NCBI GenBank assembly: GCA_045863335.1 | Contig: BTVY01000052.1 | Location: 1 to 44,045 of the forward strand | Direction: 5' to 3' | From: Candidatus Hydrogenedentota bacterium | GTDB taxonomy: Bacteria > Hydrogenedentota > Hydrogenedentia > Hydrogenedentales > SLHB01 | DNA: 44,045 nt | Shown here: piece by piece, positions 19,108 through 43,497 of the stretch | How the letters are laid out: every line of letters begins with the position of its first letter | Numbering within the stretch: position 1 is the first letter of the stretch | The notes under the pieces: model-generated | Database searches by the model: none | The model's input: only the letters and a program-made list of their open reading frames with translations | What the model was told of the DNA's origin: nothing | Made by a program: the position numbers and the translations under genes

Positions 19108-19169
19108 ATATATGCATAAACCCCGGCTAAAAGTTACTGCCGCCGAGGGAAGGCATATGGCTCCGCGCG

Positions 19170-19592
19170 ATGCGAACTCAGCGAACTTTTGCTTGCGGAT
19201 GGCACGTAGCGCCGGTCCATCGCAACTCGTTAGATCGCAATGTGATATATGCGGTGACTCAAGCTGAGGAGCCGGGCGAGAACGAACCGATCAGTGCAAT
19301 AGCGCTCTCATTGTCCTTTCGAAAGATGCTGGACGAAGGTACAGTCCGCGATCCGACCCACCTTGCGCAGCAATTGGGTCTGACTCGGGCTCGAGTCACC
19401 CAAATCCTGAACCTCCTCAAACTTCCACCAGCGGTCATCACTGAGCTGGGCGACGCCAACGAACCTGCCGAGATTGCCTTCTTCACCGAGAGGCGTCTGC
19501 GTTCCATGACCACGCTTACCTCTGCCCAAGAACAGCTTGAGGCTTTCCAGGCCATGAAAAAGGAACTTGTGGCACTCTCCGTTGCTCAGTAA
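19170..19592 (+). CDS. ParB/KorB-like HTH protein of the kind found beside or at the C-terminus of large serine recombinases
   Basis: F..MLDEG.V.D...LAQQLGLTRARVTQILNLLKLPP and TERRLR motifs; starts 5 bp inside the left junction; may be an N-terminally truncated remnant. Confidence 0.6.
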   Translation: MRTQRTFACGWHVAPVHRNSLDRNVIYAVTQAEEPGENEPISAIALSLSFRKMLDEGTVRDPTHLAQQLGLTRARVTQILNLLKLPPAVITELGDANEPAEIAFFTERRLRSMTTLTSAQEQLEAFQAMKKELVALSVAQ

Positions 19593-19988
19593 CGGCCAGC
19601 TGCCTCGGGTCCGTAGCTCATCCATCCAGGAGACAGACCCATCGCCGGCGAGATAACGGTGGACCCAGGGTAAGTCTCTCGTAGGATGTGAAATTGCAAC
19701 GCGTTCTTGTCAGCTAGGGTTCAGCCTACATAGTGCTCTAGGCAACTGACACTTCCATTGAAAGCAATCAGAAGTGGTGAACCCGTATCAGCAGCGATGG
19801 TCAAACAGAGCGTCGCGGCACCCACTAGCGGCATAGCCATGAACATCGATTCAACTCCAAGGGCAAAGCTGGTGACCTGTCAAGAAATCGACAAAGTACA
19901 TCTGCAAAGATGCCCCCACGACGGCGCGTTGCTACTCGCGCATTTGCACCATGAATAGCACTCTCCGCCGACTCGTATCAGGGGCAAC

Positions 19989-20016
19989 TTGAAATCTATA
20001 CATAAATATGTATAAC
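19989..20016 (+). promoter_or_regulatory. Promoter with overlapping palindromic operator, probably the Rrf2 autoregulatory site
   Basis: TTGAAA-16 bp-TATAAC, with TATACATA-AA-TATGTATA (19997-20014) overlapping the spacer and -10. Confidence 0.65.
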
Positions 20017-20050
20017 TATGGATAGAGGATGCAATCGAGCGAGGTGGTGC

Positions 20051-20467
20051 GTGTTACCCAAGACATCAGAGTACGCTTTGCGGGCTGTGGTGTGGTTGGC
20101 CCGCGAACCGGGGCGAAAGGCTTCGGCCGACCTCCTGGCCGAGCACACGAAGGTACCACGCCGTTATTTGCACAAGGTCTTACAGGACTTGGTGGGCGGC
20201 GGCCTCGTGTGGTCCCAGCCTGGTCCCGGCGGCGGCTACGCGTTGGCGCGACAACCTGAGGATGTCACGATCCTCGACGTGGTCAATTCCGTGGCGCCCT
20301 TGGAGCGTATCCGCAGTTGCCCGCTTGGGCTTCCATCGCACACGACACTCTGCCCTCTCCACAGCGAATTGGACCGGGTCTACGCCGCGGCGGAACGTGC
20401 GCTGGGGCGCGTGACGATTGCAGAGTTGCTCCGTTCGGCAAGCCCAGTCGTTCCGTTGTGCGGGTGA
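20051..20467 (+). CDS. Rrf2 family transcriptional regulator
   Basis: EYALRA, YL.KVL..L, S..G.GGGY.LA and DVV..V motifs; Cys/His set CPLG...H..LCPLH; GTG start after GAGGTG. Confidence 0.92.
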   Translation: MLPKTSEYALRAVVWLAREPGRKASADLLAEHTKVPRRYLHKVLQDLVGGGLVWSQPGPGGGYALARQPEDVTILDVVNSVAPLERIRSCPLGLPSHTTLCPLHSELDRVYAAAERALGRVTIAELLRSASPVVPLCG

Positions 20468-20504
20468 CGTAGCTTCAACGCCAGTTGAAAAAAGGAGAAT
20501 CCCG

Positions 20505-21236
20505 ATGAGCACGATTTCCGTTCAAGACATAGTGGGAGAGATTATCGCACAGCGCCCCATGCTTGCACATGTGTTTGAAGCGGCCGGCGTGGACTACTGC
20601 TGCGGCGGCAAAAAGACGCTGGAGGTGGCATGCCGGGAAAAGGGCCTTGATCCGCAGGCGTTCGCCGACAAGCTGGTGCGGTCAGAGGCGGCGTCCGAGG
20701 GGGAGCCGCTGGCGGATGCGGCGGCTATGTCGCTCACGGAGTTGGCCGACCACATCGAACACACGCACCATGCTTACCTCCGCTCGGAGTTGCCTCGGCT
20801 TGACGCGCTCACGGAGAAAGTGGCCTCCGTGCATGGAGGGGAAGACGCTCGCCTGCACGACGTTCGCAAGACCTTGCTTTCTCTGGCCGCCGAAATGACC
20901 AGCCACATGATGAAGGAAGAACAAATCCTGTTTCCCATGATACGCCGTCTGGAAATGAGCGATGCGCTTCCGAAGTTTCACTGCGGCTCGATCGCCAATC
21001 CGATCCGGCAGATGGAGATGGAGCATAACGATGCCGGCTCGGCGCTCGAACGAATGCGCGCGCTGACTGATGAATATACTCCGCCTGACTGGGCCTGTAA
21101 TACATACCGTGTGATGCTTGACGCGTTGGCCCGCCTCGAGCTCGACATGCATCAGCACGTTCACAAAGAAGACAACGTGCTGTTCCCGAGCGCCTTCAAG
21201 CTCGAAGCCGGACTTGCCGAAAGGGCAAAGGCGTGA
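20505..21236 (+). CDS. ric: Iron-sulfur cluster repair di-iron protein (Ric/YtfE/ScdA)
   Basis: DYCCGG, HH.YL..ELP, HM.KEE.ILFP, ME.EH and H.HVHKEDNVLFP motifs; AAGGAG RBS. Confidence 0.95.
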   Translation: MSTISVQDIVGEIIAQRPMLAHVFEAAGVDYCCGGKKTLEVACREKGLDPQAFADKLVRSEAASEGEPLADAAAMSLTELADHIEHTHHAYLRSELPRLDALTEKVASVHGGEDARLHDVRKTLLSLAAEMTSHMMKEEQILFPMIRRLEMSDALPKFHCGSIANPIRQMEMEHNDAGSALERMRALTDEYTPPDWACNTYRVMLDALARLELDMHQHVHKEDNVLFPSAFKLEAGLAERAKA

Positions 21237-21865
21237 TGGCCGTGCACGTGGGCGGCAAGCCGCTGGCGGATTTCAGCGCACCCATCGAGATGATGAAAGA
21301 TTGCCACCGGCGGATCGAGCATTTTCTCGAAGTATTGCAGGCGGCCGAACGGCGATTCGGCGGAAGCAATCTTGACGAGGAAGGACGCCACGCATTGGAT
21401 GCCTCGCTGAACTACTTCGCGAACTTCGCGCCGCGCCATACAGCTGACGAGGAGCAGTCGCTATTCCCACGGATGCGAAGTTCCGGCGACTTGGACGCAC
21501 GAGCGGTCTTAGCCGATCTGGAGCGCCTGGCAAACGACCATCGCGGTTGCGAGGCGCTCCATGCGCACGTTCACGGCGTAGTGAGCAATTGGCTCGGAAC
21601 GGGTCGGCTGGACGCCACTCAACGGAGTGGGCTTCGGGCGGCGCTTGATGAACTGATAAGAATCTATGCGGCCCACATTCAGCTTGAGGAAGGCCACGTT
21701 TTTGTGGTTGCAGATCGCATACTAAGGGCCGAGCAGATTCAGGAAATCGGCGAGGAAATGAGAGAGCGGCGATCGCTCGCGGGCCTGGGGCACACAGGCG
21801 TGAGCTTGTTCGAGAAGGAGAGGCTGCAGCCCGAGAGACCCTCGCGGCATGGAGTCGGGCGATGA
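21233..21865 (+). CDS. Hemerythrin-domain protein
   Basis: CHRRIE, RHTADEE.SLFP, DH and HI.LEE motifs; GTGA overlap with ric. Confidence 0.85.
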   Translation: MMAVHVGGKPLADFSAPIEMMKDCHRRIEHFLEVLQAAERRFGGSNLDEEGRHALDASLNYFANFAPRHTADEEQSLFPRMRSSGDLDARAVLADLERLANDHRGCEALHAHVHGVVSNWLGTGRLDATQRSGLRAALDELIRIYAAHIQLEEGHVFVVADRILRAEQIQEIGEEMRERRSLAGLGHTGVSLFEKERLQPERPSRHGVGR

Positions 21866-22224
21866 GCAAGTCACTGCACCTTCGCGTGAAGCAAATCTAT
21901 GAACCTCCGTCAAATCAAGACGGACTTCGAATCCTGGTGGATAGGCTGTGGCCGCGAGGGCTCAAGAAAGAGACCTGCAGACTCGACAGCTGGCTGAAAG
22001 ACATTGCGCCCAGCAATACACTGCGCCGCTGGTTTGGGCATGACCCGGCCCGTTGGGACGAGTTTCAACAGCGCTACTTCGAGGAACTAGATGAGAGACC
22101 GGACATCTGGCAGGCCGTCATGGAGCTGGCGCGGGGGAAAACCGTCACGCTTCTCTATGCGGCTCACGATTCCCAGCACAATAATGCTGTAGCCCTGAAG
22201 AATTATCTTCAACGCGTCCGCTAA
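21862..22224 (+). CDS. DUF488 (YeaO-like) protein
   Basis: DG.RILVDRLWPRGL.KE, W.K.IAPS..LR.WFGHDP and HNNAVALK motifs. Confidence 0.9.
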   Translation: MSKSLHLRVKQIYEPPSNQDGLRILVDRLWPRGLKKETCRLDSWLKDIAPSNTLRRWFGHDPARWDEFQQRYFEELDERPDIWQAVMELARGKTVTLLYAAHDSQHNNAVALKNYLQRVR

Positions 22225-22367
22225 ACCGATGGGATTCGATGACGCCATGATCCGGCGTTCGTAAAACGATTCGACAGGAGATGACGATCCCGGAAGAAGA
22301 AGACCGACGATAGCACACTGCAATCTCCGGCCAAGTTCATTCTGATTTTGTGAAAGGAGAGACTATC

Positions 22368-22712
22368 ATGGCAATTCCGCACGCGGCTCCCGGTATTCCC
22401 GTGGATCTTCGGCCACAAGCCGAGGGGTTTTCCGAGGCGAAGGCGAACGCGCTGGTAAAGACCGAGGGCTTTGAGGCTATCCGGATGGAGATCCCAAAAG
22501 GACACGAGGTATGTCGCAATCACCAGGTGGAAGGCCCAATCACGATCCATTGTATGAAAGGCCAAATTGCATTTACTGCAAATGGCGAGATGCGAGTTGT
22601 ACCTGAGGGGCATTGGCTTTTTTTGCCGGGTGGTGTCCCTCACACTATCGTTGGGAGAGAGGACTCTTTGGTCTTGTTGACGATCATGTTTCGTTCGCGC
22701 AATGCCAACTAA
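22368..22712 (+). CDS. Small cupin domain protein
   Basis: MAIPHA.PG, H.V.GPITIHC..G and L.GG.PH motifs; AAGGAG RBS. Confidence 0.85.
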   Translation: MAIPHAAPGIPVDLRPQAEGFSEAKANALVKTEGFEAIRMEIPKGHEVCRNHQVEGPITIHCMKGQIAFTANGEMRVVPEGHWLFLPGGVPHTIVGREDSLVLLTIMFRSRNAN

Positions 22713-22733
22713 CCCACCTGAAAGGTAAAACAA

Positions 22734-23213
22734 ATGCAACCGCGACTTGATTATGCGAGCGTCGCTCCGGATGGCGTTAAGGCCATGTGGGGATTGGAGA
22801 AATACGTGCACGGCTGCGGACTGGAGCCTTCCCTGCTGGAACTCGTGAAGACCCGCGCCTCCCAGATTAATGGCTGCGCCTTCTGCATCGACATGCACAC
22901 CAAGGATGCCCGGGCCGGCGGCGAGACAGAGCAGCGACTCTACGCGCTCTCCGCCTGGCGCGAGACGCCATTCTTCAGTGACCGGGAGTGCACCGCTCTT
23001 GCGTGGACCGAAGCTGTGACCAACGTCGCACAAACGAATGTTCCCGACGAAGTCTATGAGCTCGCTCGGCAGCACTTCGACGAGAAAGAGTTGGCAGACC
23101 TGACGCTGGCGGTTGTGGCGATTAACGGCTGGAACCGGCTGGCCGTCAGTTTTCGGAAGGTGCCGGGGACGCATGAGCCTTCACAGCACAAAGGATGCCC
23201 CACGGTCGTGTGA
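22734..23213 (+). CDS. Carboxymuconolactone decarboxylase/AhpD family protein
   Basis: LLELVK.RASQINGCAFCIDMH and INGWNRL motifs. Confidence 0.92.
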   Translation: MQPRLDYASVAPDGVKAMWGLEKYVHGCGLEPSLLELVKTRASQINGCAFCIDMHTKDARAGGETEQRLYALSAWRETPFFSDRECTALAWTEAVTNVAQTNVPDEVYELARQHFDEKELADLTLAVVAINGWNRLAVSFRKVPGTHEPSQHKGCPTVV

Positions 23214-23355
23214 AGGCGGCGCCTGTGCCGTCCCGCCTGGTAGCTGAACTCGCGCCAAGAATCAATGCGTGGGCCGCCGATAATCGATCAGGAGACGACC
23301 GGAGCGGTCAACGGCAGCCGATGTTGAAGCACTTAGAATGGGAAAGGTGGCAGCA

Positions 23356-24045
23356 ATGAAGCGCATAGGCTTAATCGGAGGGCTCAGCCCCGAGTCCACT
23401 GTTCATTACTATGAAATAATCTGTCGCGAATACAATCGCCAGGCCGGCGAATTAAACTTCCCGGAAATCACAATCCAGAGTCTAAACCTGCAGAAGTTGA
23501 TCCCGCACTTCGAACATAACGACTGGGACAAGGTCGCTGCCATTCTTCTGGACGCTTTGCACTGTCTCAAGAACGCCGGCGCCGAATTCGCGGCGATTCT
23601 GGCAAACACGCCGCACAACGCCTACGACCTAATCCGCGACTCGAGTCCGCTGGAAATCCTCACGATTATGGATGCGACGTCCGAGGCGCTCGTTCACGAT
23701 GCCCGGCGGATGGTTGCGCTGCTGGGCACACGGCCCACCATGGAGTTCGGGTTTTTCCAGAAGCATTTTCAGGCGAGTCATATCGAAACGCTCGTTCCCG
23801 ACGCCCACGCGCGGCAGGAGTTGGACCGTATTGTGTGGGAGGAGCTGTCGCACGGAACCGTGCGCCCCGAATCCCGCGCATCGGCTAAGGGCATGATTGC
23901 CGATTTGACCGCTCAGGGCGCCGAGGCAGTGATTCTTGGCTGCACGGAACTCTGCCTTCTAATCCAGCCAGAGGACAGTCCAAAGCCACTCTATGACACG
24001 ACCCGCATTCACGCCGAAGCGATTCTCAAGTTTGCGATGGAGTAA
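23356..24045 (+). CDS. Aspartate/glutamate racemase family protein
   Basis: IGLIGGLSPEST..YY, ANTPH, LLGT..TM, LGCTEL and DTT.IH motifs. Confidence 0.88.
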   Translation: MKRIGLIGGLSPESTVHYYEIICREYNRQAGELNFPEITIQSLNLQKLIPHFEHNDWDKVAAILLDALHCLKNAGAEFAAILANTPHNAYDLIRDSSPLEILTIMDATSEALVHDARRMVALLGTRPTMEFGFFQKHFQASHIETLVPDAHARQELDRIVWEELSHGTVRPESRASAKGMIADLTAQGAEAVILGCTELCLLIQPEDSPKPLYDTTRIHAEAILKFAME

Positions 24046-24055
24046 CCGGAATATC

Positions 24056-25210
24056 ATGAGCGACACGCAAGAACCGGACTGGAACCCAAAAGCAGCGGAT
24101 GTATTGCGCGACCAACGCGCGGCTTACGACGCCATGCGCGGGCACTGCCCAGTCGCCTATAGCGAACTGATGCATTGGTCCGTGTTTCGGCACGAGGAAG
24201 TGATGCGCGTGCTCTCGGACCACGAGACCTTCAGCAGCACCGTTTCGGAGCACTTGTCTGTTCCAAGCGGCATGGATCCACCCGAGCATACGGCATATCG
24301 TGCAATTGTCGAACGGTATTTTTCCGGCGAGCGGATAGCGGCGTTCGAGCCTATCTGCCGCAACCTCGTTGTGGATCTGGTCCAGGATCTGCTCGAACGT
24401 GGTCAGGTGGAGCTTGTTGCTGATTTTGCGCTGCCTTTTGCGGCACGGGCCCAATGCGCCTTTCTAGGTTGGCCGTCAACGTTGCAGGAACCGATCATCC
24501 GCTGGACGCAGAAAAGCCACGTCGCCACGTTCGCCCAGGATCGCAAAGTCATGTCTGAGATTGCGCGGGAGTTCGAGGACTTGGTTGACGAGCTTATAGA
24601 GGACCGGCTTGAAGCTGGCGCCAAGGCGGATGACGACATTACGGCGTCCCTCATGCACGACACGGTTTGGGGACGACCGTTAAGCCACGAAGAAATAGCG
24701 AGTATCCTGCGAAATTGGACTGTCGGGGAGATCGGGACAATTTCCGCCGCCGTTGGGATATTGGCTCATTATCTTGCCGAACACGCCGATCTTCAATCGC
24801 AACTTCGGGCGGAGCCGTCGCTCTTGCCTGCCGCCATCGATGAGATTCTGCGGATTCACGGCCCCCTCGTTGTCAATCGGCGAGTCACAACCCGGCCTGT
24901 GGAAATCAATGGCCGGCAAATCGGCGCAGGCGAACGAGTCTCGCTCATGTGGATTTCCGCCAATCGTGATGGCCGGGCCTTTGACGAACCGGATTGCTTT
25001 CGTTTTGATCGGGATGTGGAGAAGAATCTTCTGTACGGCGCCGGCTTGCACGTTTGCCCAGGCGCACCGCTTGCGCGACTCGAGATGCGAGTCTGGCTGG
25101 AAGAATTGTTGGCCCGCACAGACAGCGTCGGGCTCGTTCCGGGAACTCCCCCAAGAAATGCGGTTTACCCCGGCAGCGGATTTGCCAAATTGCCGCTATT
25201 GATACAATAA
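24056..25210 (+). CDS. Cytochrome P450
   Basis: MDPPEH..YR, EILR (ExxR), ANRD...F..PD.F and heme motif YGAGLHVCPG..LAR.E. Confidence 0.95.
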   Translation: MSDTQEPDWNPKAADVLRDQRAAYDAMRGHCPVAYSELMHWSVFRHEEVMRVLSDHETFSSTVSEHLSVPSGMDPPEHTAYRAIVERYFSGERIAAFEPICRNLVVDLVQDLLERGQVELVADFALPFAARAQCAFLGWPSTLQEPIIRWTQKSHVATFAQDRKVMSEIAREFEDLVDELIEDRLEAGAKADDDITASLMHDTVWGRPLSHEEIASILRNWTVGEIGTISAAVGILAHYLAEHADLQSQLRAEPSLLPAAIDEILRIHGPLVVNRRVTTRPVEINGRQIGAGERVSLMWISANRDGRAFDEPDCFRFDRDVEKNLLYGAGLHVCPGAPLARLEMRVWLEELLARTDSVGLVPGTPPRNAVYPGSGFAKLPLLIQ

Positions 25211-25489
25211 CGCAGCCGAGACTTTTGTTCGATCCATCGACATGCAGTTCGCCAGGATTGACAAGCGAGGTCCGTAAGACGGTAGACCGTCTTGGAAAAT
25301 GCTGCGAATAGAACGACGGTGCAAAGTGCGTCCCAAGGGCACGATGCGCGTAAGCGCGAGTACGAACGGCGCAAGCATTCGTGGTAATGTCCCAGATTGC
25401 CTGGGGTCCATAGTTGTTCTGGTTGCCATAGAACCTGGAAAGTTGCTTGTTGAGGGTCGGGTCCAGGTCGGCTTGCAGGTGTCGAGCAT

Positions 25490-26163
25490 TTAAGGTTCAC
25501 ACAATTGATTTCGCAACCACTATAGTGACGGCGGCGGCGATGGTATTTCCTCCCATGAAATCGGTCGCATCAGCATCAAGGGCTTTTACGATAGTCCCCG
25601 CCTCGCCTTCGGCCGCGCGGGACGCCGCCCCCAACTTCCTTAGACTGGTGACACATGCCGCTCAGTTCAATCGATTCAAGGATCGTCCCGTTTTCAGGTA
25701 GCACGGACCGCTGAACTTCGCTTGCCAGACGAACCTCGGTTTCGAGCTGTTCCCGGCGTCGTGTTTCGTTCTTCAAGACTTCCAGGTGGTTCTCCAGGGA
25801 TTTAGCCATAGTGTTCACACTCATCGCGAGCCGCCGCAGCTCTTCCGGACCGGTTATGTGCGCGCGCACTTGGAGATCGCCGCTGCCGATTCTCGCGACG
25901 CTTTCCGACAGCATCGCGAGTGGAGTGGAGATTTTGTGACTCAGGAAGGCAGCGATTACCAGCGCACACGCGACCATAAGGGGCGCGAAGGCAGAAACAA
26001 ACACGATCCGTCTATATATCATTGAGGAAGGCGCTCCACCTACGGGCCACAGGACAATACCGATGACTCGCCCTGGGTTGGGTCCAACCGTCCCAGCAAG
26101 GACCAATTCTCCTCCGTTCAGCTTTTCAACGCAGACGCCGTTGCGCCCGCTGATCTTTATCAT
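25490..26163 (-). pseudogene. Degraded HAMP + SpoIIE/PP2C phosphatase gene
   Basis: TM helix, HAMP (PL..L......IG.GDL...EL..LA..VN.M), E..LA.EVQ.S.LP, then ..KEVGG. The sequence then jumps, in another frame, to a PP2C-like C-terminus (IVKAL..DA.DFMGG......VTIVV); the catalytic core is missing. Confidence 0.65.
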
Positions 26164-26345
26164 GCGACGCCAAGTGTCAATATCTTCCGGGGCAAGAGTG
26201 GCCGTACCTGACCAGTTTCCTCGATAGCTTCCGCCTCACGTCTTGCGGCCTTTGTTACAACCAGCACGGTTTCGTGCTCGTGTTCAAGTATGTCCGCTGC
26301 TCTCATAACGTAGTCTCCTGGATCTCGTGGACCTCAAGCCACCGT

Positions 26346-27008: not shown

Positions 27009-27116
27009 GCCAGTTCTCCTTTGTTGCAGGTGCCGGCTTTTCGGCCTCGGGCGCCTTTCCGTTGCCGTTTCCAATCGCTTCGCTGAAGAGCCCCCAGGCC
27101 TTTTCGGCCTGACGGG

Positions 27117-27145
27117 TTGACAAAGGGTAGATATTGGGGTAAAAT
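27117..27145 (+). promoter_or_regulatory. sigma70-type promoter of the tetR-rnk gene
   Basis: TTGACA (27117-22), 17-bp spacer, TAAAAT (27140-45). Confidence 0.8.
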
Positions 27146-27178: not shown

Positions 27179-27199
27179 TTCGTGGAGGTATGAAAAATA

Positions 27200-34437: not shown

Positions 34438-34465
34438 AATGTTCTCCTTCGATACACAGACCAAA

Positions 34466-37324: not shown

Positions 37325-37480
37325 GATTTCCTTCCTTTGCGGGACTACATTAAACAACCACAGCCCCGCTATCGGCTCCGTGACGCGGAACGTCCGGTTG
37401 GCGGATCTTGTGCGGCCTCTCGGCACGCACAGTCGACTGACACGGCTCGCAGCCGTCTCCAATCAAGTCGATGTTCGAGT

Positions 37481-38221
37481 TTAGTACCCGCTAAAGTCTT
37501 CCGCTCGGACGTTGCCAGGGTTCACGCCCCGTTCGGCGAGGAGCGCCCGCATGCTGTCAACAAATCGAGGCGGACCAACAACATAATAAACCGGTGAAAT
37601 CGCATCGGCTACGTGCTTTGCGAACAGTTCCCAACTGAGGTGTTCGGTGCAACCGGTCCACTCTTGCCGGGACTCTTTCAAGCGGGTCATGCTTGCTACC
37701 AGTTGGTAGTGAGGATTAACGCTCTGTAAATCAGTCAATTCGTCGAGAAACAGCGCGTCTTCAGGTTTATGGTTCGAGTAAAAAAGAACTGTCCGCAGCG
37801 GCAGCTCTTTCCACGCTGCGGAAACAAGAATGCTCCGGACCGGCGTAATACCGATGCCGCCGACTACAAACACGGCTGTTTGCGCCGTGCCAATATCCAT
37901 CGCGAAACTGCCGCCGGGACCATCAATTCTCACTTCCGAATTCAGTTCCAATTGCGAAAGCCGCTGTTTGAATACAGTGTTGCGCAATCGGGTCGCCACC
38001 ATGAGAAAGTTCTCGTGAGGTGCGCTTGCAATCGACAAGGTACGGCTTTCTCCCGGCGCGTTAGCGTCGAGAGGATCCGGCAAGGTCAGCGTGAGATATT
38101 GCCCGGGGCGAAATGTGAAACTCGCGGGCTTCTCGAATTTCAGCGCGAGGGTCTGCGACGCGGCGATGGATCGTTCTGTCAGTTTGAGCCGGTAAACGGT
38201 TGTGCCAGTTTGTGAGGCCAT
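37481..38221 (-). CDS. FNR-like FAD/NAD(P)-binding oxidoreductase
   Basis: F.F.PGQY, R.LSIAS.P, GP.G.F, GGIGITP, GPP and E.F.GY motifs. Confidence 0.9.
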   Translation of the reverse strand: MASQTGTTVYRLKLTERSIAASQTLALKFEKPASFTFRPGQYLTLTLPDPLDANAPGESRTLSIASAPHENFLMVATRLRNTVFKQRLSQLELNSEVRIDGPGGSFAMDIGTAQTAVFVVGGIGITPVRSILVSAAWKELPLRTVLFYSNHKPEDALFLDELTDLQSVNPHYQLVASMTRLKESRQEWTGCTEHLSWELFAKHVADAISPVYYVVGPPRFVDSMRALLAERGVNPGNVRAEDFSGY

Positions 38222-38358
38222 TGAAACTATCCCTTTCTATCTGTGGCGGGCTGTGTAAAGACTACACCGCAATTTCGGCCTGACGGTATCGCGATCCGCC
38301 ACTTCTGGACCTGAAGTATGTCAATTTGTGGTTCCCGCGCCTGGGCGCGCGTTTTCTC

Positions 38359-38730
38359 TCACAGTGTCTGCGTGGCGGAAAGGATTGTTATCTCCATGGC
38401 CGCCCTCACCCAAGGAAATTTCTCCTTGACGAAATCAAACGACTTACCCGATTTTATGAAAGCCGCCGTGCCCTTGATCAGGAACCCAGCGCCGGGGCCG
38501 TGGTGTCCCCGCACCTCGCGGCTCCCAAGAGTCATAAGAATATTGTTGTCTTTCTCTATATTGGCTTCCGTACGCAACATGCCGCCAACCGGCAACAAGA
38601 GATGTCCCTCTCGGGTGACATGGATATAGCTGTTCCAAGTGTTTACCAAGTGCGGGCCTTCGACGCCCATTGTGGAGATCGCAACCACCCCTTCGTATTC
38701 TAGAATCTGAGTCATCTTGTCGGGGATCAT
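38359..38730 (-). CDS. FMN-binding split-barrel protein (Desulfovibrio FMN-bp/PNPOx-like)
   Basis: EGVVAI.T.G..GPHLVNTWNSY, PVGGM..TEAN, MTLGSR.V.G..GPG.GFLI.G and terminal QTL match the FMN-bp pattern. Confidence 0.88.
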   Translation of the reverse strand: MIPDKMTQILEYEGVVAISTMGVEGPHLVNTWNSYIHVTREGHLLLPVGGMLRTEANIEKDNNILMTLGSREVRGHHGPGAGFLIKGTAAFIKSGKSFDFVKEKFPWVRAAMEITILSATQTL

Positions 38731-38742
38731 ATGCGAGCCTCC

Positions 38743-39213
38743 TTATGTTTTGCGCGCCGTGGGTTGATAGGTTCCCGGAACGGTGCGGAACGCAATTGCC
38801 AGCCGGTTCCACCCATTTATTGCGACAATCGCCAAGGTGAGATCTACGAGTTCCGCCTCCGTAAACTGCTGGCTGGCCACTTCGAAGACCGTCTCCGGCA
38901 CGTGTCCAGCGCTTACCAGTGTTACTGCTTCCGTCCAAGCCAAGGCGGCGCGTTCGCGCGCTGAGAAGAAAGGAGTTTCCGCCCAGGCCGAAAGCGCGTA
39001 CAGCCGCTGCTCGGTTTCGCCGCCAACGCGGGCATCCTTGGTGTGCATGTCGATGCAATAGGCGCATCCATTGAGCTGCGATGCTCGAGTCTTGACCAGT
39101 TCGAGTAGCGATTGCTCCAACCCGCACTGATGGACGTAGTTTTCGAGCCCCCACATCGCTTTGATGGCGTTCGGGCTCGTCTCTTTGTAATCGATGCGTG
39201 ATTTCAAGAGCAT
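38743..39213 (-). CDS. Carboxymuconolactone decarboxylase/AhpD family protein, second paralogue
   Basis: RASQLNGCAYCIDMH and INGWNRL motifs; closely similar to 22734-23213; exact start uncertain. Confidence 0.92.
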   Translation of the reverse strand: MLLKSRIDYKETSPNAIKAMWGLENYVHQCGLEQSLLELVKTRASQLNGCAYCIDMHTKDARVGGETEQRLYALSAWAETPFFSARERAALAWTEAVTLVSAGHVPETVFEVASQQFTEAELVDLTLAIVAINGWNRLAIAFRTVPGTYQPTARKT

Positions 39214-39240
39214 TCTCCTCGTCATAACGCGCGGCTTGCG

Positions 39241-40992
39241 TTAGTTCGCCTTTGTTTTCGCCTCATAAAGGCACTTCTTTATCTGCTCGACGGTGTCCAG
39301 TTGCAGCACAAATCGAGCCCATTCTTCGGCGTGCTGCACGTTTGTCGAACGTATTGCGTTCTTGATCTCCAAAATCTCGGCTGGGCTAACACTGAGTTTC
39401 CTGAACCCTAATCCGAGCAACAGGGCGGTATAAGCGGGGTTGCCGGCCATCTCCCCGCAGATAGAGATGCTCTTGCCGGCGGCCACAGCCGCCGACGCCA
39501 GTAACGAGAGGACTTCCAGTACCGCGGGATGGAGTGGCTCATAATATGGAGACATTGCGCTGCTCATCCGGTCCGTAGTTAATAGGTACTGCACCAGGTC
39601 ATTGGTGCCAATACTAAGAAAATCAACTTCCGAGACAAGCCGGTTAATCATGATGGCTGCGGCCGGTGTCTCAATCATCGCACCAATCAGAATGTCTGGG
39701 TTAAACGACTGACTCTCCGCCGACAGGCTCTCCTTCGCGTTCGCGACGGCTGTCTTGGCGGCACGCATATCTTCTATGTCCCCGACCATGGGAAAAAGAA
39801 TAGAAACCGGATGAGTGGCGCTCAGACGTAGAATCGCGCGCAGTTGCGATCGCAGAATCTCGGGATGCGCCAATAGCAACCGGGTACCACGACGCCCCAA
39901 CGGCGGATTCGATTCATGAGGCAAGGGAAAGTATGGGAGTACCTTATCGCTTCCGATGTCCAAGACCCGAATTACGACTTCGCGCGGCTCCAATCGGGCT
40001 GCCGCTCCGCGGTACATTTGGTACTGCTCTTCTTCGGAGGGGAAATGATCCTGCACGAGAAAGACAAACTCGGTGCGGTAAAGCCCGACACCATCGGCAT
40101 TCAACTTGGCTGCCGTAACGCTATCCGCCGACTTGCCAATATTTGCGCAGAGTTGGATTGGAATTCCATCGAGCGTTACCGCCGGAACGTGAATTAGACT
40201 TTCCAGAGCGGTTTGGTGAGCACGAAGATCTTTCCCGAGTTGGTCGTACTCCCGCGCAACTTCGGGGGAAGGATTGACAAACACTCGACCTGCCAATCCG
40301 TCTACGATGAGTTCGTCACCCTGTCGTATCCTCGATGTGGCGTCGGGAACGTTGAGCAGGAACGGAATACCGTGGGCGCGGGCGAGTATTGTAGCGTGGG
40401 CTGTTTGGCCGCCTGTCTCGGCCACCAATCCACGAATTTTTCGAGTACTCAATTGCGCCATTACGGAGGGTAACAATTCGGTAGTAACGATGATGCTTTC
40501 ATCGGGAATAGTAGGGACGTTCGTAAAATGGCTCGTTACCAAAGCATCTAGTATCCGCTTACCAAGGTCCCTAAGGTCAGCCGCTCGCTCATGGAAATAG
40601 GGATCTTCGATGCGGACGAACGAAGATACTAATTTCGCTACGGCCTCATCAACGGCGGCCTCCACGTTGACTCTTTCGATGAGGCAACGTGTTCTAATTT
40701 CCTCGCGCAACGAAGGGTCGTGTAACAGAGCGATCTGGACGTCAAGAATGCGAGATTCTTGCTTGCCGATCTCCCGCAGAACCACCTGTTGCAACTTTAA
40801 TAAATCCCGTTCAACGATGGGAACAGCGGCATCGAAGCGATCTATTTCCTTCTGAGGATCATGACCATCTATTACCTGTCGCGGCACGGAATTGTGTCCG
40901 ACGCATCCGCACACGAACGCCTGGCCACGGGCCACGCCAGGAGAGGCCACCTCGCAAACGATCATTATTGATGTTTTCTCGCTATCCGTCAT
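39241..40992 (-). CDS. ptsI: Phosphoenolpyruvate-protein phosphotransferase (PTS enzyme I)
   Basis: ERAADLRD, GG.TAHATILAR (phospho-His), GVGLYRTEF, R.LDIG.DK, MIETP, SIGTNDL.QY and ICGEMAG motifs; no GAF domain. Confidence 0.92.
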   Translation of the reverse strand: MTDSEKTSIMIVCEVASPGVARGQAFVCGCVGHNSVPRQVIDGHDPQKEIDRFDAAVPIVERDLLKLQQVVLREIGKQESRILDVQIALLHDPSLREEIRTRCLIERVNVEAAVDEAVAKLVSSFVRIEDPYFHERAADLRDLGKRILDALVTSHFTNVPTIPDESIIVTTELLPSVMAQLSTRKIRGLVAETGGQTAHATILARAHGIPFLLNVPDATSRIRQGDELIVDGLAGRVFVNPSPEVAREYDQLGKDLRAHQTALESLIHVPAVTLDGIPIQLCANIGKSADSVTAAKLNADGVGLYRTEFVFLVQDHFPSEEEQYQMYRGAAARLEPREVVIRVLDIGSDKVLPYFPLPHESNPPLGRRGTRLLLAHPEILRSQLRAILRLSATHPVSILFPMVGDIEDMRAAKTAVANAKESLSAESQSFNPDILIGAMIETPAAAIMINRLVSEVDFLSIGTNDLVQYLLTTDRMSSAMSPYYEPLHPAVLEVLSLLASAAVAAGKSISICGEMAGNPAYTALLLGLGFRKLSVSPAEILEIKNAIRSTNVQHAEEWARFVLQLDTVEQIKKCLYEAKTKAN

Positions 40993-41187
40993 GCGCTCAC
41001 GCTATTCCAATACTCGGTGCGGGACTTTGTGCCCTGGTTCCCCGTCACGTCCAGCTGTTATGGCGGCATCTACTCCGGTTGATTTTATGCGCGTCATCAA
41101 AATTGCACGCCTATCTCCGGCGCGTTCCCCAAAAAACAGGTCCAGTTGGAGTGAGAGGAACCGACCAACTGGCGCTACGCGTGAGTT

Positions 41188-42456
41188 TCATTGGGGAATC
41201 CTCGTAATAAGGCGTGCGGTCTTGTTCCACGTTAGGTAACTCCATCCCCATTGCACAAACACAAGAAGACGGGCCTCGAATAGCACCAACTTCATGAGAT
41301 GGACAAACAGCCAGAATACCCACGCCAGGTGCCCGGGCAAACACACGCCGCCAATCCTCGCCACCGCGAGCCGCCGCCCAACAGTGGCCATCATGCCATA
41401 GTCGCGATAATGAAATGGGGGCATCAACTGCCCAGAGAGGCGGCGCTTTATAGAGATTCCGACATAGCGGCCTGCCTGGGCGGCAACGGGAGCAATGGCC
41501 GGCAGAACTGTGCCGTCACTTATTCCGACACTGGCGAGGTCACCAATAATGAAGATCTCTGGATGCTTCGATAGGGCCAGATCCGGCCCAACAGCAATGC
41601 GGCCAATTCTATCCTGTTCAGCGCCTGAATCTCGGGCAAGCTGATCGGCCAAGCGAGATGCCTTAATACCCGCTGCCCACAGGACGGTTCGTGCTTGGAT
41701 ACGCTCATTCCTGTCTGGGGTCTGAAGCGTAACTCCGTCATTGTCGATATCGAGAATAGTCGCACCCGTTTGCAGCTCGACATTGAGGTCCCGCAGGTAT
41801 CCCGCAGCCTTCCGCGATAGTTCTGCCGGGTAGGGAGGCAGCACACGATCGTTTTGTTCAACTAAAACGATGCGTGCATCGCTGGGTTCAATACTTCTGA
41901 ATTCGTTCGTGAGCGTATAGCGCGCAATCTCGGCGAGTGCACCGGCCAACTCGACGCCCGTCGGGCCGCCCCCTACGATGACGAATGTAAGTAATGCCTG
42001 GCGTGCGTCAGGATCTGGCTCGAATTCGGCGCGTTCAAACGCGGACAGGATCTGCGCGCGCATCTCCGTCGCATCTTCGACGCTCTTCAGGCCTTGCGCG
42101 CGTAATGCCCACGTGTCTTTCCCAAAGTAACTCGTCTCCGAACCCACCGCCATGATCAACGTGTTATACGTAATTGCGTCGTCCAATAGCTTGACACGAC
42201 GCCCCTCTACATCGATTCCCTTCACTTCCCCTAGCCGGACATTAACGTTGGGTTGGCGCCTGAATACATGTCGTAGCGGAGCGGCAATGTTGGCGGGCGA
42301 CAATCCTCCTGTCGCTACTTGATAAAGTAGTGGCTGGAACAGGTGGTAGTTGTTCTTGTCAACGAGAGTAATATCTACCGGCGCCCGACGCAGCGCTCGC
42401 GCCGCGGCTAATCCGGCAAATCCGCCTCCTGCAATAACTACCTTGTGTTTGCTCAT
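41188..42456 (-). CDS. ndh: Type II NADH dehydrogenase-like NAD(P)/FAD oxidoreductase
   Basis: GGGFAGL, HLFQPLLYQVATG, VGGGPTGVELAG, WAAG, GD and F.Y.D.G.MATVGR motifs. Confidence 0.9.
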   Translation of the reverse strand: MSKHKVVIAGGGFAGLAAARALRRAPVDITLVDKNNYHLFQPLLYQVATGGLSPANIAAPLRHVFRRQPNVNVRLGEVKGIDVEGRRVKLLDDAITYNTLIMAVGSETSYFGKDTWALRAQGLKSVEDATEMRAQILSAFERAEFEPDPDARQALLTFVIVGGGPTGVELAGALAEIARYTLTNEFRSIEPSDARIVLVEQNDRVLPPYPAELSRKAAGYLRDLNVELQTGATILDIDNDGVTLQTPDRNERIQARTVLWAAGIKASRLADQLARDSGAEQDRIGRIAVGPDLALSKHPEIFIIGDLASVGISDGTVLPAIAPVAAQAGRYVGISIKRRLSGQLMPPFHYRDYGMMATVGRRLAVARIGGVCLPGHLAWVFWLFVHLMKLVLFEARLLVFVQWGWSYLTWNKTARLITRIPQ

Positions 42457-42479
42457 TGCCACTCGGCTATACCCTCGGT

Positions 42480-42914
42480 TCATTTCCTGGTTGATATGAC
42501 AGCCACGCGCCCACCCATTGACAGGCCCATGGCGGGCACGCAAACACGCCGCCAATACGGCACGTTTGCGTGCAAATCTTCATTGGCAGCCACAAAGATG
42601 ATGGTAACCAGTAAGACGCAGTCGGTCCTCGCTTCAATAGTGTGCACTTTCCCGCCCTCGATGTGGAGCCAATTCCCGGCGCGCAATGCCCGCGGCTCCG
42701 ATTTCACAAAGAAAACCGCGTCCCCTCGAAGACAGTGCACGGCGATCGGGCCATTTACCTTGTGGGGCGGCACGGTGCTCCCCGCACGGATGAATAGCCG
42801 GACGGTTTCAAAGTGCTTTGCCTTCATGAGCGCAATAGTATGCGTATCCGTTTTTTCCCCGCCGTACGTCTTCAAGTCGATGACTTCACCGGGTTCCGCA
42901 TGTTTTATAGCCAT
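42480..42914 (-). CDS. Small cupin domain protein, paralogue of 22368-22712
   Basis: MAIKHAEPGEVIDL, HKV.GPI.VHCL.G and GG.VH motifs; C-terminal ~35 aa look like read-through. Confidence 0.8.
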   Translation of the reverse strand: MAIKHAEPGEVIDLKTYGGEKTDTHTIALMKAKHFETVRLFIRAGSTVPPHKVNGPIAVHCLRGDAVFFVKSEPRALRAGNWLHIEGGKVHTIEARTDCVLLVTIIFVAANEDLHANVPYWRRVCVPAMGLSMGGRVAVISTRK

Positions 42915-43106
42915 TACTTTGTCTCTTCCGCATCTGTGTTCGCCCTGATCAAGTACTGCAGGCCGATTACGATTGGGAAACCATTTCCTTGTTAACGCGA
43001 TTGTTCGATAGCGCGCACGCCGGGCGCCGCTTCCAACGGCTTTTTTGCGATGCCACGACGCCGCCAACACCGCGCTATAGGGTCAACAGAAACAAGGTGG
43101 CATTCT

Positions 43107-43273
43107 ATTCGGGCCGGCCGGGCATGCGCGGGAGAATCTTGGCCTTACCTGCCCTCCGGCCCTCGCGAGACCGGTCCCGGTAAAGCCTTGCTACGGCGCT
43201 ACTTCCACGAGAAGCGGCAATGTGCTGAACCCGCTTGCAGGGTACGCGGCCCGCTTCGCCGGCCGGGCCGAGT
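43107..43273 (-). ncRNA. Candidate structured RNA or ssDNA element (unassigned)
   Basis: Nested complementary segments paired by eye: terminal stem, UACC(C)UGC/GCAGGUA, AAGCGG/CCGCUU, and a CCGGUC..GCGA..GGCCGG hairpin. Confidence 0.35.
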
Positions 43274-43424
43274 TTAATTTGATTCGAGTAGTGCTCCGAA
43301 GGAGCTCCTCCAGGGTTACCCATAATTCCACCCTAGCCAGCGGAGTATCAAGAACAGGCAAACTTTCTGGGAGATCTTGACATCATGTTAACCAATCGCC
43401 GTTTAGTCAGTTTTCTCATTTTGA

Positions 43425-43497
43425 TCCCCGAGCAAGACTCGAACTTGCGACCCGCTGGTTAATCCCGCGTGCCGCGGGACTCTACCAACTGAGCTAT
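43425..43497 (-). pseudogene. Pseudo-tRNA-Asn copy whose 3' end is split by the island
   Basis: tRNA nt 7-24, a 17-nt hairpin (43463-79), then nt 35-72; the remaining GCCA is at 19158-19161. Confidence 0.9.

Follow-up and report, generated by a model that had tools for sequence, protein, structure and literature searches.

tRNA genes are the classic targets of tyrosine integrases. Large serine recombinases (LSRs) move the staphylococcal cassette chromosome (SCC) elements, which insert at the 3' end of rlmH and build head-to-tail composite islands. The CIMEs of Streptococcus are flanked by att sites and have no recombination or transfer genes, lie in tandem with an ICE and can leave with it. 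Reportedly, in work credited to Bibb and Hatfull in 2002 and 2005, the LSR element phiRv1 of Mycobacterium tuberculosis inserts into copies of the repeat REP13E12. Relatives of SCC with att pairs and without ccr genes are mentioned in one report (PMC13739063), and another places the LSR-encoding Paracoccus phage vB_PamS_Pami6 in a tRNA-Met gene (PMC6536676).

A 24-kb block inside a pseudo-tRNA

The window, that is the whole stretch of 44,045 nucleotides analysed here (contig C52 of genome G000), contains an island of 24,260 bp (24,263 bp including one TCC) which interrupts the tRNA-Asn-derived pseudo-tRNA psi1 between TGGC-TCC and CCGAGC (Table 1). At the left junction GGCATATGGC and TCC are followed by GCGCGATGCGAACTC, and at the right junction TCTCATTTTGA is followed by TCC and CCGAGCAAGACTCGAAC. 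TCC alone is common to the two junctions, and the same was found for the copy of the island in genome G002. When the outer flanks were rejoined via a single TCC they gave GGCATATGGCTCCCCGAGCAAGACTCGAAC, a sequence identical at every position to the real tRNA-Asn at its 3' end and to the spacer downstream of it (43860-43890 of the window). The right end of the island reads TTTTGA-TCC where the tRNA would need TGGC-TCC, and the overlap is 3 bp, not a long identity block restoring the 3' part of the tRNA. Moreover, an uninterrupted TGGCTCCCCGAG join is present in the pseudo-tRNAs of two genomes of the same genus, G004 and G005. A first-pass annotation of the window had described an insertion into the pseudo-tRNA with an overlap of TCC only, by an element which does not rebuild the tRNA 3' end, and had proposed the empty site in relatives as a check; the junctions, the rejoined flanks, the right end of the island and the empty sites all agree with that description.

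psi1 retains the D arm, the 3' side of the anticodon stem, the T arm and the 3' strand of the acceptor; it has lost the 5' strand of the acceptor, and a 17-nt hairpin takes the place of positions 25-34. Since ARAGORN and Rfam (at the gathering threshold) call just one tRNA in the window, at 43868-43943 on the minus strand, psi1 does not qualify as a tRNA gene. The tRNA that is called, tRNA-Asn(GTT), is the sole tRNA-Asn among the 45 tRNAs which ARAGORN finds in the assembly. A second pseudo-tRNA, psi2, carries a hairpin-forming insert of 27 nt (18691-18717) directly after TGGCTC, the position of the island in psi1, and this variant is also present in G003. The pseudo-tRNAs of G004 and G005 have a hairpin insert of 25 nt in the T stem. 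Another contig of the assembly, C55, begins with the same tandem 71-bp units that run off the end of the window.

The 440-bp perfect repeats on either side of the island belong to a unit made of spacer, GIY-YIG ORF and pseudo-tRNA, and the left repeat terminates in TGGCTCC, which in plus-strand reading corresponds to the final 7 nt of the tRNA. The unit recurs in a third copy, which stops at the end of the AraC gene. This bears out the earlier view that the repeats are part of the array and not a target duplication. Homologous recombination between the repeats allows loss of the island, and the locus of same-genus G003 looks as would be expected after the exchange that had been suggested.

Because the 440-bp repeats match perfectly, the assembly graph is also consistent with a chromosome bearing one unit together with a 24.7-kb circle (the island and one unit); a bin of mixed strains is another option. 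G003 does show a one-unit locus, and in four public metagenome runs (Logan contigs) no contig bridges the left junction with at least 31 letters on each side. However, unique DNA is no more than 10 bp away from either junction sequence, and in the run that best represents the sequence the flank (19.6) and the island (18-40) have similar summed contig depths, a measure that is not copy number. A wrong contig path is judged very unlikely. In the circle form too, the island would interrupt a pseudo-tRNA unit at TCC; the integration event therefore stands either way, and the chromosomal and circular forms interconvert by homologous recombination.

No recombinase family was detected by a Pfam scan of the 33 ORFs of the region, and the ORFs adjoining the right end of the island encode a cupin and an NDH-2-type oxidoreductase, with no integrase (Pfam). 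The cargo has themes of nitrosative and oxidative stress repair, redox, aconitase, NDH-2 and copper efflux.

Table 1. Features of the window, with positions, strand and the basis of each assignment
Feature	Position	Strand	Basis
AraC-family regulator; chromosomal flank left of the array	17452..18489	+	Pfam AraC_N 3.5e-57, HTH_18 6e-19
Third unit copy, diverged and truncated: GIY-YIG N-terminal part and spacer	18494..18684	-	77-88% identity to the other two
Pseudo-tRNA psi2	18685..18786	-	Alignment and sequence
440-bp perfect direct repeat, left copy	18725..19164		Exact identity to 43435-43874
GIY-YIG nuclease-family ORF, 88 aa, left copy	18784..19050	-	Pfam PF01541 3.2e-16
TCC, left copy of the 3-bp overlap (crossover region)	19162..19164		Sequence; cut point at P' junctions
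Island proper	19165..43424	+	Copies in G002, G015 and G021 sharing both ends
P' arm, conserved left end, GCGCGATGCGAACTCAGCGAACTTTTGC...	19165..19265	+	Kept at 12 junctions in 7 genomes
Small ParB-HTH protein gene, family hallmark; true start perhaps GTG 19242	19170..19592	+	Pfam HTH_ParB 5e-5
Rrf2 regulator, ScdA/RIC hemerythrin, second hemerythrin protein, DUF488	20018..22224	+	Pfam
Asp/Glu racemase, cytochrome P450	23338..25210	+	Pfam
HAMP-domain protein, DUF6448	25576..27074	-	Pfam
TetR-Rnk/GreA fusion, two more GreA/Rnk-like proteins, nucleotidyl transferase, DUF5698/DUF2179 membrane protein	27200..31651	+	Pfam
Cytochrome b561 fused to molybdopterin oxidoreductase	32368..34032	-	Pfam
Aconitase (998 aa), FAD/NAD-binding reductase	34466..38221	-	Pfam Aconitase 1e-159
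CMD-family protein, PEP-utilising enzyme, NDH-2-type pyridine nucleotide-disulphide oxidoreductase, cupin	38743..43070	-	Pfam
P arm, right end, ...CCGTTTAGTCAGTTTTCTCATTTTGA; without tRNA-rebuilding TGGC	43345..43424	+	Copies in relatives
TCC, right copy of the overlap	43425..43427		Sequence
Pseudo-tRNA psi1, B' side	43428..43496	-	Alignment to the real tRNA; no ARAGORN or Rfam call
GIY-YIG ORF, 88 aa, right copy	43494..43760	-	Pfam PF01541 3.2e-16
Real tRNA-Asn(GTT), unoccupied	43868..43943	-	ARAGORN; Rfam 70.8 bits
71-bp units in tandem, each with the 5' half of tRNA-Asn and a hairpin; extend off the contig end	43944..44045	-

Copies and relatives of the island

In G002, which is another species, the island DNA was found to be 99-100% identical and to lie at another tRNA-like fragment, whereas the backbone is only 69-78% identical between the two genomes over 17.4 kb to the left of the array. 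By this contrast in identity, the block is mobile and recently transferred. The flanks of the G002 copy are unlike those in the window, the left one ending in TACTGGTGGCTCC and the right one starting with CCGCGTCGGACTCGAACC, another tRNA-like 3' fragment. Copies with about 91% identity occur in two other genera, represented by G015 and G021. The P arm is 93-96% identical in these two genomes, and its last 122 bp are 100% identical in G002.

The copies in G015 and G021 stand within head-to-tail arrays (accretion spans of 28.3-78.5 kb in G015:C20 and 6.2-35.0 kb in G021:C17), while the island of the window is solitary. In G015:C20 the successive left arms are preceded by TTTTATGGCTCC at P'(a), GTGTTCTCC at P'(b), ATCATGGCTCC at P'(c) and CATTTTGATCC at P'(d), and the array in G021:C17 has the same b-c-x order. 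A circle-type junction, TTTTGATCC followed by GCG.GATGCGAAC, for which a search had been recommended, is present as a natural head-to-tail junction in both genera. Neighbouring array elements are separated by one TCC, as expected for a shared core and not for target duplications. The cut at P' junctions is TC/C in 12 of 12 cases from 7 genomes, and GGCTC stands before it in nine. A 21-mer of P' was found in 8 of the 135 genomes of the phylum, against one control match.

These junctions also bear on a DDE transposon, for which the TCC on each side of the block would be a 3-bp target-site duplication. An invariant insertion point and a single TCC between neighbours in the arrays speak against it, as do the lack of terminal inverted repeats and, by Pfam, of a transposase, and a transposon of this kind is scarcely credible.

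Further comparison showed that related elements in G015, G021 and G115 encode an LSR whose domains are Resolvase, Recombinase and Zn_ribbon_recom. Orthologues of this LSR (64-100% identity) are found in G015, G115, G021, G119 and G046, and in all five the 3' end of the LSR meets the 3' end of the real tRNA-Asn (..CTGGCTCC/(C/G)CGAG..). All five LSR-bearing ends at real tRNAs supply TGGC; in G018 and G019 the sequence directly after the tRNA supplies it as well. In G116 a decayed LSR copy ends in ..GGTATCTGGCTCC/GCGCGATGCGAACTCAGCGAAC and is joined via TCC to an island-type left arm, after which the ParB-HTH gene follows. The LSRs at the TGGCTCC of the real tRNA-Asn in five genomes, together with the G116 fusion, back the earlier guess that a large serine recombinase was the mover. 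The direct link between the LSR and the canonical P' arm comes from one small contig (G116:C75) and from reading 78.5-193.9 kb of G015 as one element.

Homologues of the ParB-HTH gene were found in 24 of the 133 genomes of the order. An LSR-clade gene lies within about 1.1 kb of it at 8 loci in 6 genomes, and the clade is represented in 10 of these 24 genomes, against 14 of the 109 that lack the ParB-HTH gene; since kin are not independent, these counts do not amount to a statistical test. In the distant members G017, G023 and G061 the LSR gene simply adjoins the ParB-HTH gene, and TGGCTCC is absent from the interval.

Recombinase candidates and the proposed route of entry

Searches for a recombinase were extended to the host. 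A six-frame search of the whole genome gave no match to PF00239 or PF00589 on contig C52, and with the related LSR as tblastn query the best hit in the window had E = 2.3. The first-pass annotation had noted the absence of an integrase from the element, which these searches uphold, and had proposed looking for a serine recombinase acting in trans in the same genome. The latter did not materialise: at E <= 1e-40 neither G002 nor G000, the latter 99.4% complete, gave a match to the tRNA-Asn LSR clade, and the best tblastn match in G000 had 27% identity. G000 does contain two unrelated LSRs, both on C4.

The sequences of the att arms were then compared. The heptamer CGAACTT is found both in P' (positions 18-24) and in B' (positions 13-19). 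In a published account, the motif of the LSR zinc-ribbon domain lies 5 bp further inward in attB than in attP (PMC3783163). The shift between P' and B', spotted post hoc, is likewise 5 bp inward and, on this one side, resembles that pattern. A shared 7-mer arose by shuffling in 65 of 50,000 trials at the offset of CGAACTT and in 1,380 of 50,000 at any offset. On the P/B side nothing comparable to the P'/B' shift was seen. There was also no significant likeness between the P arm of the island and that of the LSR elements, and no dyad symmetry between P and P' of the island (its score was attained in 1,937 of 2,000 shuffles). In G116, the LSR-type attP shows weak dyad symmetry, at 15 of 30 positions, a level reached by 209 of 5,000 shuffles.

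A different enzyme, either a tyrosine recombinase or an undescribed one, could have acted in trans with a mismatch-tolerant overlap, the LSR then being a separate element that shares the hotspot. G000 has tyrosine recombinases outside the window (6 PF00589 matches, 5 of them above cut-off; ORFs of 475 aa and 606 aa are among them), whereas neither of its LSRs belongs to the tRNA-Asn clade. Moreover, tRNA genes are the established targets of such integrases, and G019 has no PF00239 match at all although elements of the family are present there. However, no tyrosine recombinase gene was found at the element ends examined in G015, G021 and G019, and in each of two independent events, one in G000 and one in G002, the partner sites share just 3 bp of identity. 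The fusion through TCC in G116 and the 5-bp shift between P' and B' also point away from this enzyme, and its involvement is considered unlikely.

The island is probably a non-autonomous member of an LSR-moved family which targets the 3' end of tRNA-Asn, its recombinase being lost or supplied in trans. Such a family would be defined by the conserved left arm P' followed by the small ParB-HTH gene, with the LSR as mover and a putative role for the ParB-HTH protein. The island is flanked by the P' and P ends of the family, as in G002, G015 and G021, and has no recombinase of its own. Entry would have been a conservative site-specific recombination between an attP (..TTTTGA-TCC-GCGCGATG..) and the TGGC-TCC-CCGAG of the pseudo-tRNA, and the crossover would fall within TCC. 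Strand exchange by LSRs takes place at a central dinucleotide, which would here be TC or CC. From the arrangement in the relatives, we infer that the LSR clade catalysed this step, either in trans or from a helper which was later lost. The near-identical copies in G000 and G002, at different sites and in genomes that both gave no match to the clade, would be indirect evidence for supply in trans.

Complete elements would carry the LSR gene at the right end and a right arm ending in CTGGCTCC, so that insertion in the real tRNA-Asn would rebuild its last 7 nucleotides. The right arm of the island ends in TTTTGATCC instead, which would restrict its survival to places that do not require a functional tRNA, namely a pseudo-tRNA or a tandem array. 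In both genomes with a solitary copy (G000 and G002) the real tRNA-Asn is unoccupied. As the LSR clade is not found in this genome, the island would be stranded, with loss or amplification only through homologous recombination between the 440-bp repeats. On the strength of these sequence comparisons, it is read as a putative stranded satellite of the LSR element family.

Pseudo-tRNA copies had also been proposed to act as spare landing pads or decoys. The landing-pad idea fits the data in the sense of a permissive site, as both of the two solitary islands lie in a pseudo-site. An evolved, adaptive decoy function would be a further, hypothetical step. A related possibility is that the units downstream of tRNA-Asn are retained as safe-harbour attachment sites, which would offer the LSR target of T arm, acceptor 3' strand, CCA and spacer and would not be a needed gene; the hairpin inserts of psi2 (27 nt) and of G004 and G005 (25 nt), which lie at the crossover or close to it, would then be re-closed sites. 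This is doubtful; if true, the host would capture recombinase-less cargo islands, and insertions would be drawn away from its sole tRNA-Asn.

Significance and comparison with known systems

If the LSR reading is correct, a family of serine-recombinase islands targets a tRNA 3' end, the textbook territory of tyrosine integrases. A residence rule would follow, in which elements with a TGGC-mimicking right arm enter the sole tRNA-Asn gene and others are confined to dead tRNA copies or arrays. The locus makes testable the use of tRNA-derived fragments as secondary landing sites, as well as the movement of cargo at near-100% identity across species and genera in an uncultured, sludge-dwelling phylum. 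Moreover, an LSR with a short, defined att pair at a tRNA end is a candidate tool enzyme.

Among known systems, SCC and pseudo-SCC elements would be alike in being LSR-moved, in inserting at the 3' end of a single conserved gene with a link to RNA, in their composite piling and in having recombinase-less members. The present family instead targets tRNA-Asn at its acceptor/CCA end, together with its dead copies, in an uncultured phylum, and only complete elements rebuild the tRNA end. A single LSR gene takes the place of the CcrAB pair. As in CIMEs, an att-flanked island without a recombinase accompanies an autonomous element, but CIMEs depend on a tyrosine integrase and long identical att cores, in contrast to a 3-bp core and an LSR. 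The tRNA islands of tyrosine integrases share the tRNA target, the tRNA-derived direct repeats and the tandem arrays; in the present case there is no adjoining integrase or long identity block, the tRNA end is unrestored and the 440-bp repeats pre-exist in the array. The phage vB_PamS_Pami6 illustrates that serine recombinases can target tRNA genes, although it has its own recombinase, and the accessible part of its description mentions no satellites, pseudo-tRNA use or end-rebuilding arm. Finally, phiRv1 resembles this family in that an LSR uses several repeat copies as alternative attB sites, but its repeat is not tRNA-derived and it carries its own LSR and RDF.

The island and its tRNA-Asn locus

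The two junctions of the 24-kb block (left arm P', right arm P) were found to have TCC as their sole shared sequence. Read on the plus strand, the junctions are GGCATATGGC-TCC/GCGCGATGCGAAC at the left end, where the slash marks the join, and TCTCATTTTGA-TCC/CCGAGCAAGACTCGAAC at the right end. The inserted DNA amounts to 24,263 bp, one TCC included. Rejoining the outer flanks gives the exact sequence at the 3' end of the real tRNA in the same window, and also that of the uninterrupted pseudo-tRNAs of G004 and G005, two genomes of the same genus. Together with the junction sequences, this confirms the first-pass annotation in its claims that the island is an insertion in a pseudo-tRNA with a TCC-only overlap and that the empty site is a simple TCC rejoin. 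The flanking repeats, 440 bp of perfect identity, were also rightly attributed to the array: they belong to the array unit and are not a target duplication.

The reported absence of an integrase was likewise upheld. A Pfam scan found no recombinase or transposase domain in any of the 33 ORFs, and six-frame searches of the whole genome (G000) for PF00239 and PF00589 gave matches on other contigs and none on that of the window. Further copies of the island ends were sought in G000 with blastn and blastn-short, which returned nothing but chance 12-16-mers. The G+C content of the block is 0.51-0.62, compared with 0.58-0.64 to its left. A decayed large serine recombinase (LSR) within the island was considered from a by-eye likeness between its right end and the LSR 3' end, which neither tblastn nor blastn supported. 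Terminal inverted repeats and dyad symmetry were looked for in the island attP and none was found. The long inverted repeat within the island (254 nt, 74% complementarity) is due to two diverged CMD-family (AhpD-like) paralogues in opposite orientation. The island also carries three GreA/Rnk-like genes within 3.6 kb, the first of which encodes an unusual fusion with a TetR DNA-binding domain.

G000 is assembled to 6.75 Mb in 105 contigs and is 99.4% complete; its contig C52 (44,045 bp) makes up the entire window. The window's single tRNA, called by ARAGORN and Rfam, is the sole tRNA-Asn among the 45 tRNAs of G000. The parts of its locus are numbered in the table along the tRNA direction (minus strand).

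Features of the tRNA-Asn locus of the window, of the island and of related loci
Feature	Location	Remarks
1. Tandem 71-bp units, tRNA 5' half plus hairpin	43944-44045	reach contig end; G000:C55 begins with the same units (1-110)
2. Real tRNA-Asn(GTT)	43868-43943, minus
3. Spacer S		terminator-like hairpin inside
4. GIY-YIG ORF, 88 aa	43494-43760, minus	Pfam 3e-16
5. Pseudo-tRNA psi1		lacks 5' acceptor strand; 17-nt hairpin in place of positions 25-34
TCC of right junction	43425-43427
6. 24-kb block	19165-43424	P' from 19165
7. tRNA last 7 nt (GGAGCCA), S, second GIY-YIG ORF	18784-19050, minus (ORF)
8. Pseudo-tRNA psi2	18691-18717 (insert)	27-nt hairpin-forming insert in 3' end, right after TGGCTC; also in G003
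9. Diverged S and truncated GIY-YIG copy		adjoin end of AraC-family gene
Inverted repeat in island	22767-23020 / 38921-39174
GreA/Rnk-like genes in island	27200-30761
5'-half units, G004	L022 ~14500-15300
Insert in pseudo-tRNA T stem, G004	L022 ~13960-13985	25 nt, hairpin-forming
Insert in pseudo-tRNA T stem, G005	L024 ~8776-8800	25 nt, hairpin-forming
Degenerate unit end, G005	L024 7330-7420 (G005:C49)
Element in real tRNA-Asn, G018	G018:C108:61420-64480 (L090)	~3 kb
LSR gene, G015	G015:C20:192286-193884	532 aa
LSR genes, G000	G000:C4:10891-11328 and 41885-42319	ORFs of 515 and 524 aa; same strand, 31 kb apart

The 5'-half units upstream of the real tRNA measure 71-75 bp and consist of tRNA-Asn positions 1-24, an 18-nt hairpin, TTAACCAGC and about 20 nt. 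At least four were counted in G000 over two contig ends, about ten in G004, two in G005 and one in G003. Their hairpin always adjoins the anticodon-loop TTAA, lying 5' of it in this genus and 3' of it in G019. The 88-aa GIY-YIG ORF has its stop codon within the D arm of the next pseudo-tRNA. It recurs in at least three genera (G003, G004, G005, G019, and G021), located either on the downstream side of tRNA-Asn or where an island array has its distal end, and the unit of spacer, GIY-YIG ORF and pseudo-tRNA might be a selfish or duplicating module in its own right. The short hairpin inserts at or near the crossover would disrupt the presumed half-site of attB, and could be scars or else small palindromic elements.

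Copies of the island and the junction rule

Comparison with other genomes identified the block as a mobile island. In G002, another species of the genus, its first 6.4 kb, positions 8.8-14.9 kb and last 122 bp are shared at 99-100%, and identity over 17.4 kb of backbone on the left side of the array is only 69-78%. The middle of the G002 copy differs from the window's island and the G002 contigs break there; a contig of metagenome run X4 carries a variant similar to this middle and runs on into the aconitase gene. The G002 site lies outside the tRNA-Asn array, with flanks ..TACTGGTGGCTCC/ on the left and /CCGCGTCGGACTCGAACCGTGAACC on the right, the latter being a degenerate tRNA-like 3' fragment uncalled by ARAGORN. 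The real tRNA-Asn of G002 is intact, with its spacer directly after it, and a search of G000 for the empty site of this event gave no match to the G002 flanks. In G015 and G021, which represent two other genera of the family, the left 6.5 kb of the island was found at ~91-92%, against a backbone identity of 66-76%; the cargo is rearranged and both ends are the same. Across the phylum, a 21-mer of P' (up to two mismatches) occurs in 8 of 135 genomes, with one match for the reversed control. Public metagenome contigs gave no match to a 21-mer of P' or to the head-to-tail junction pattern, and a scan of the genome collection gave one locus with the same junction type, L120 (a Candidatus Hydrogenedentota MAG according to its record).

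Four elements lie head to tail on contig C20 of G015: element a encodes a TOTE-type primase-helicase, b carries copper efflux genes, c is the window's island and d follows it. The left arms of the four are preceded as follows: TTTTATGGCTCC/P'(a), GTGTTCTCC/P'(b), ATCATGGCTCC/P'(c), CATTTTGATCC/P'(d). At the junction before d, the right end of the island meets the left arm of the element after it, so the circle-type junction predicted in the first-pass annotation is present as a natural join. The order b-c-x in G021:C17 is as in G015, and that array ends with /GGAGCCA, S, GIY-YIG and a pseudo-tRNA. The fetched loci contain 12 genuine P' junctions (in G000, G002, G012, G015, G019, G021, and G116), all with TC/C and nine with GGCTC preceding it. 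Transposition is disfavoured by the single TCC between neighbours, together with the lack of terminal inverted repeats and of a transposase. Three extra pattern matches (one in L092, the others in G081 and G118) lie in unrelated sequence context and were discarded as false. Also rejected were GGATCCGCGCGATCGATTC at 190.96 kb in G015 as a junction, as it lies within a block homologous between G015 and G021, and two candidates for a new recombinase: the 418-aa end ORF of element a, which belongs to no Pfam or NCBIfam family, and a 420-aa ORF adjoining the tRNA in G019, whose composition is like that of a non-coding frame.

The window sequence was found in sludge, bioreactor, wastewater, and soil metagenomes; part of a 601-bp query occurs in 20 runs from 14 studies, and at least half of its words in three runs. 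The left junction was checked in assembled metagenome contigs (Logan), at least 31 letters being required on each side. Under this rule no contig listed bridges 19164/19165, record 10 of run X2 having 28 letters on the left side, and no loose end at this junction was seen among 24 of 45 listed. No circle, empty-site form or other alternative join was seen among the metagenome contigs listed. Since the repeats are identical, a one-unit chromosome accompanied by a circle of island plus unit is equally compatible with the assembly graph. On either contig path the island is inserted in a pseudo-tRNA unit.

A pseudo-tRNA as the insertion site

The right arm of the island ends in TTTTGA-TCC. Judging from this sequence, insertion into the real tRNA-Asn, a single gene in G000, would cost that gene its discriminator base and its encoded CCA. 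The solitary copies (G000 and G002) sit in tRNA-like fragments with the real tRNA-Asn site free in both, and in G015 and G021 the island is internal to arrays. Wherever an element end lies against a real tRNA-Asn, it supplies TGGC; the cases are five LSR ends and the post-tRNA sequences of G018 and G019. A P'/GGGGAGCCA junction lies downstream of the tRNA in these two genomes, at 3 kb and 29 kb respectively, and we infer that their post-tRNA sequence is an element arm. Pseudo-tRNAs thus fit the role of permissive landing sites. The first-pass annotation had called them landing pads or decoys; the first part of this accords with the data, but upkeep for that purpose is not thereby established.

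The presumed element in the real tRNA-Asn of G018 has an arm that restores GCCA, a gene for ParB-HTH (the small gene after P' that is a hallmark of the family), and P'/GGGGAGCCA at its far end. It has no LSR gene, the PF00239 matches of G018 lying on C88 and C49, and it may be the smallest family member.

Among the congeners, G004 has no island and shows the order gene, S, pseudo-tRNA, GIY-YIG, S, tRNA, and about ten 75-bp 5'-half units. In G003 the order is truncated unit, psi2 variant, GIY-YIG, S, tRNA, as it would be if recombination between the 440-bp repeats had taken place. In G005 a degenerate unit end, TGGTTTCC/GGTGTTGCGAACCCAGC, precedes a 1.2-kb stretch of other DNA. We read GGTGTTGCGAACCCAGC as a probable decayed P' arm, left behind by an earlier insertion of this family at the corresponding position. 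The 1.2-kb stretch codes for a membrane protein (minus strand), and no ParB-HTH gene was found in G005.

The proposed recombinase and comparison with known systems

The LSR of G015 has Resolvase, Recombinase and Zn_ribbon_recom domains, and its gene ends in codons that continue directly into the real tRNA-Asn at the latter's 3' end (..GGTAACTGGCTCC/GCGAG..). Orthologues occupy the same position in G115 (98% identity), G021 (93%), G119 (69%, partial, with one in-frame TGA), and G046 (64%, partial). In G119 the tRNA acceptor stem matches that of the window (..TATCTGGCTCC/CCGAGCAAGACTCGAAC). A decayed copy in G116 (55% identity, six stops) ends in ..GGTATCTGGCTCC/GCGCGATGCGAACTCAGCGAAC and is joined via TCC to a canonical island-type left arm followed by the ParB-HTH gene. 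The ends at the real tRNA-Asn and this join indicate that complete elements have the LSR gene at their right end, with a right arm that supplies TGGC.

The canonical P' motif was found in G015 at 36.8, 48.1, and 78.5 kb only, with a diverged one at 28.3 kb. These positions leave ~115 kb between 78.5 kb and the LSR at 193.9 kb, which may form a single large element with its own LSR gene, and more diverged P' arms would escape the motif search. This region (L048, L049, L094, L115-L118, and L089) is dense in defence-type and plasmid-type genes, encoding ParA, Replic_Relax, HerA-like and Cdc6-like ATPases, BREX parts (BrxL and BrxB), a 5-hmdU DNA kinase with thymidylate synthase, NB-ARC/WD40, ThiF/multiubiquitin, and SNF2-HEPN. 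A left end of the LSR module was sought by comparing G015 with G021 and not found: the homology between them ends ~5.8 kb from the tRNA, and no P' motif lies at that point. The more remote LSRs of the clade (30-34% identity) directly adjoin ParB-HTH at two loci each in G017 and G023 and in G061, with no TGGCTCC between the genes. Among 133 genomes of the order, ParB-HTH occurs in 24, the LSR clade in 24 (E <= 1e-40) and both in 10, a co-occurrence that is only suggestive because the genomes are kin.

No match to the LSR clade was found in G000, despite its completeness, or in G002. The best G000 match to the clade LSR is 27% identical, and the two LSRs on its contig C4 are unrelated to the tRNA-Asn clade; that pair may represent another mobile element, or two. 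In G019, which has two elements of the family, the genome gave no Resolvase match. The enzyme would therefore have acted in trans, or from an adjacent helper later excised. A helper that integrated beside the island and then excised would leave exactly the present P/B' junction, B' being the tRNA side, and by either route the helper would since have been lost. The earlier suggestion of a large serine recombinase is supported by the clade LSR at tRNA-Asn in relatives; action in trans would be an event of the past, G000 itself having no clade match. The right arm of the island is unlike that of the LSR elements.

CGAACTT, a heptamer belonging to the tRNA T loop, occurs 13-19 bp from TCC in B' and 18-24 bp from it in P'. 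A zinc-ribbon-domain motif is described as lying 5 bp further inward in attB than in attP (Rutherford et al., 2013; PMC3783163). The matching offset, seen on one side only and noticed post hoc, is a hint in sequence of such a pair. The G116 attP shows weak dyad symmetry, with 15 of 30 positions, a value attained by 209 of 5,000 shuffles.

Overall, the observation is real and its first reading is largely borne out. The literature drawn on for comparison comprised passages of PMC13739063, PMC3783163, PMC10654092, PMC6536676, PMC3091744, and PMC10083194. A phage that encodes an LSR and is integrated in tRNA-Met has been described (PMC6536676); the Mycobacterium serine-integrase elements described in PMC10654092 do not use tRNA genes, and the word tRNA is absent from the main text of Durrant et al. 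(2022; PMC10083194). Word matching in open-access texts brought up neither an LSR family at tRNA-Asn, nor an end-rebuilding arm, nor satellites in pseudo-tRNAs. The find is set in an uncultured phylum and is of a known kind, that of recombinase-less att-flanked islands riding on the recombinase of their family. Its closest counterparts are ccr-less SCC-like elements and SCC composite islands, which are LSR-based like the system proposed here, and CIMEs, which are tyrosine-based.
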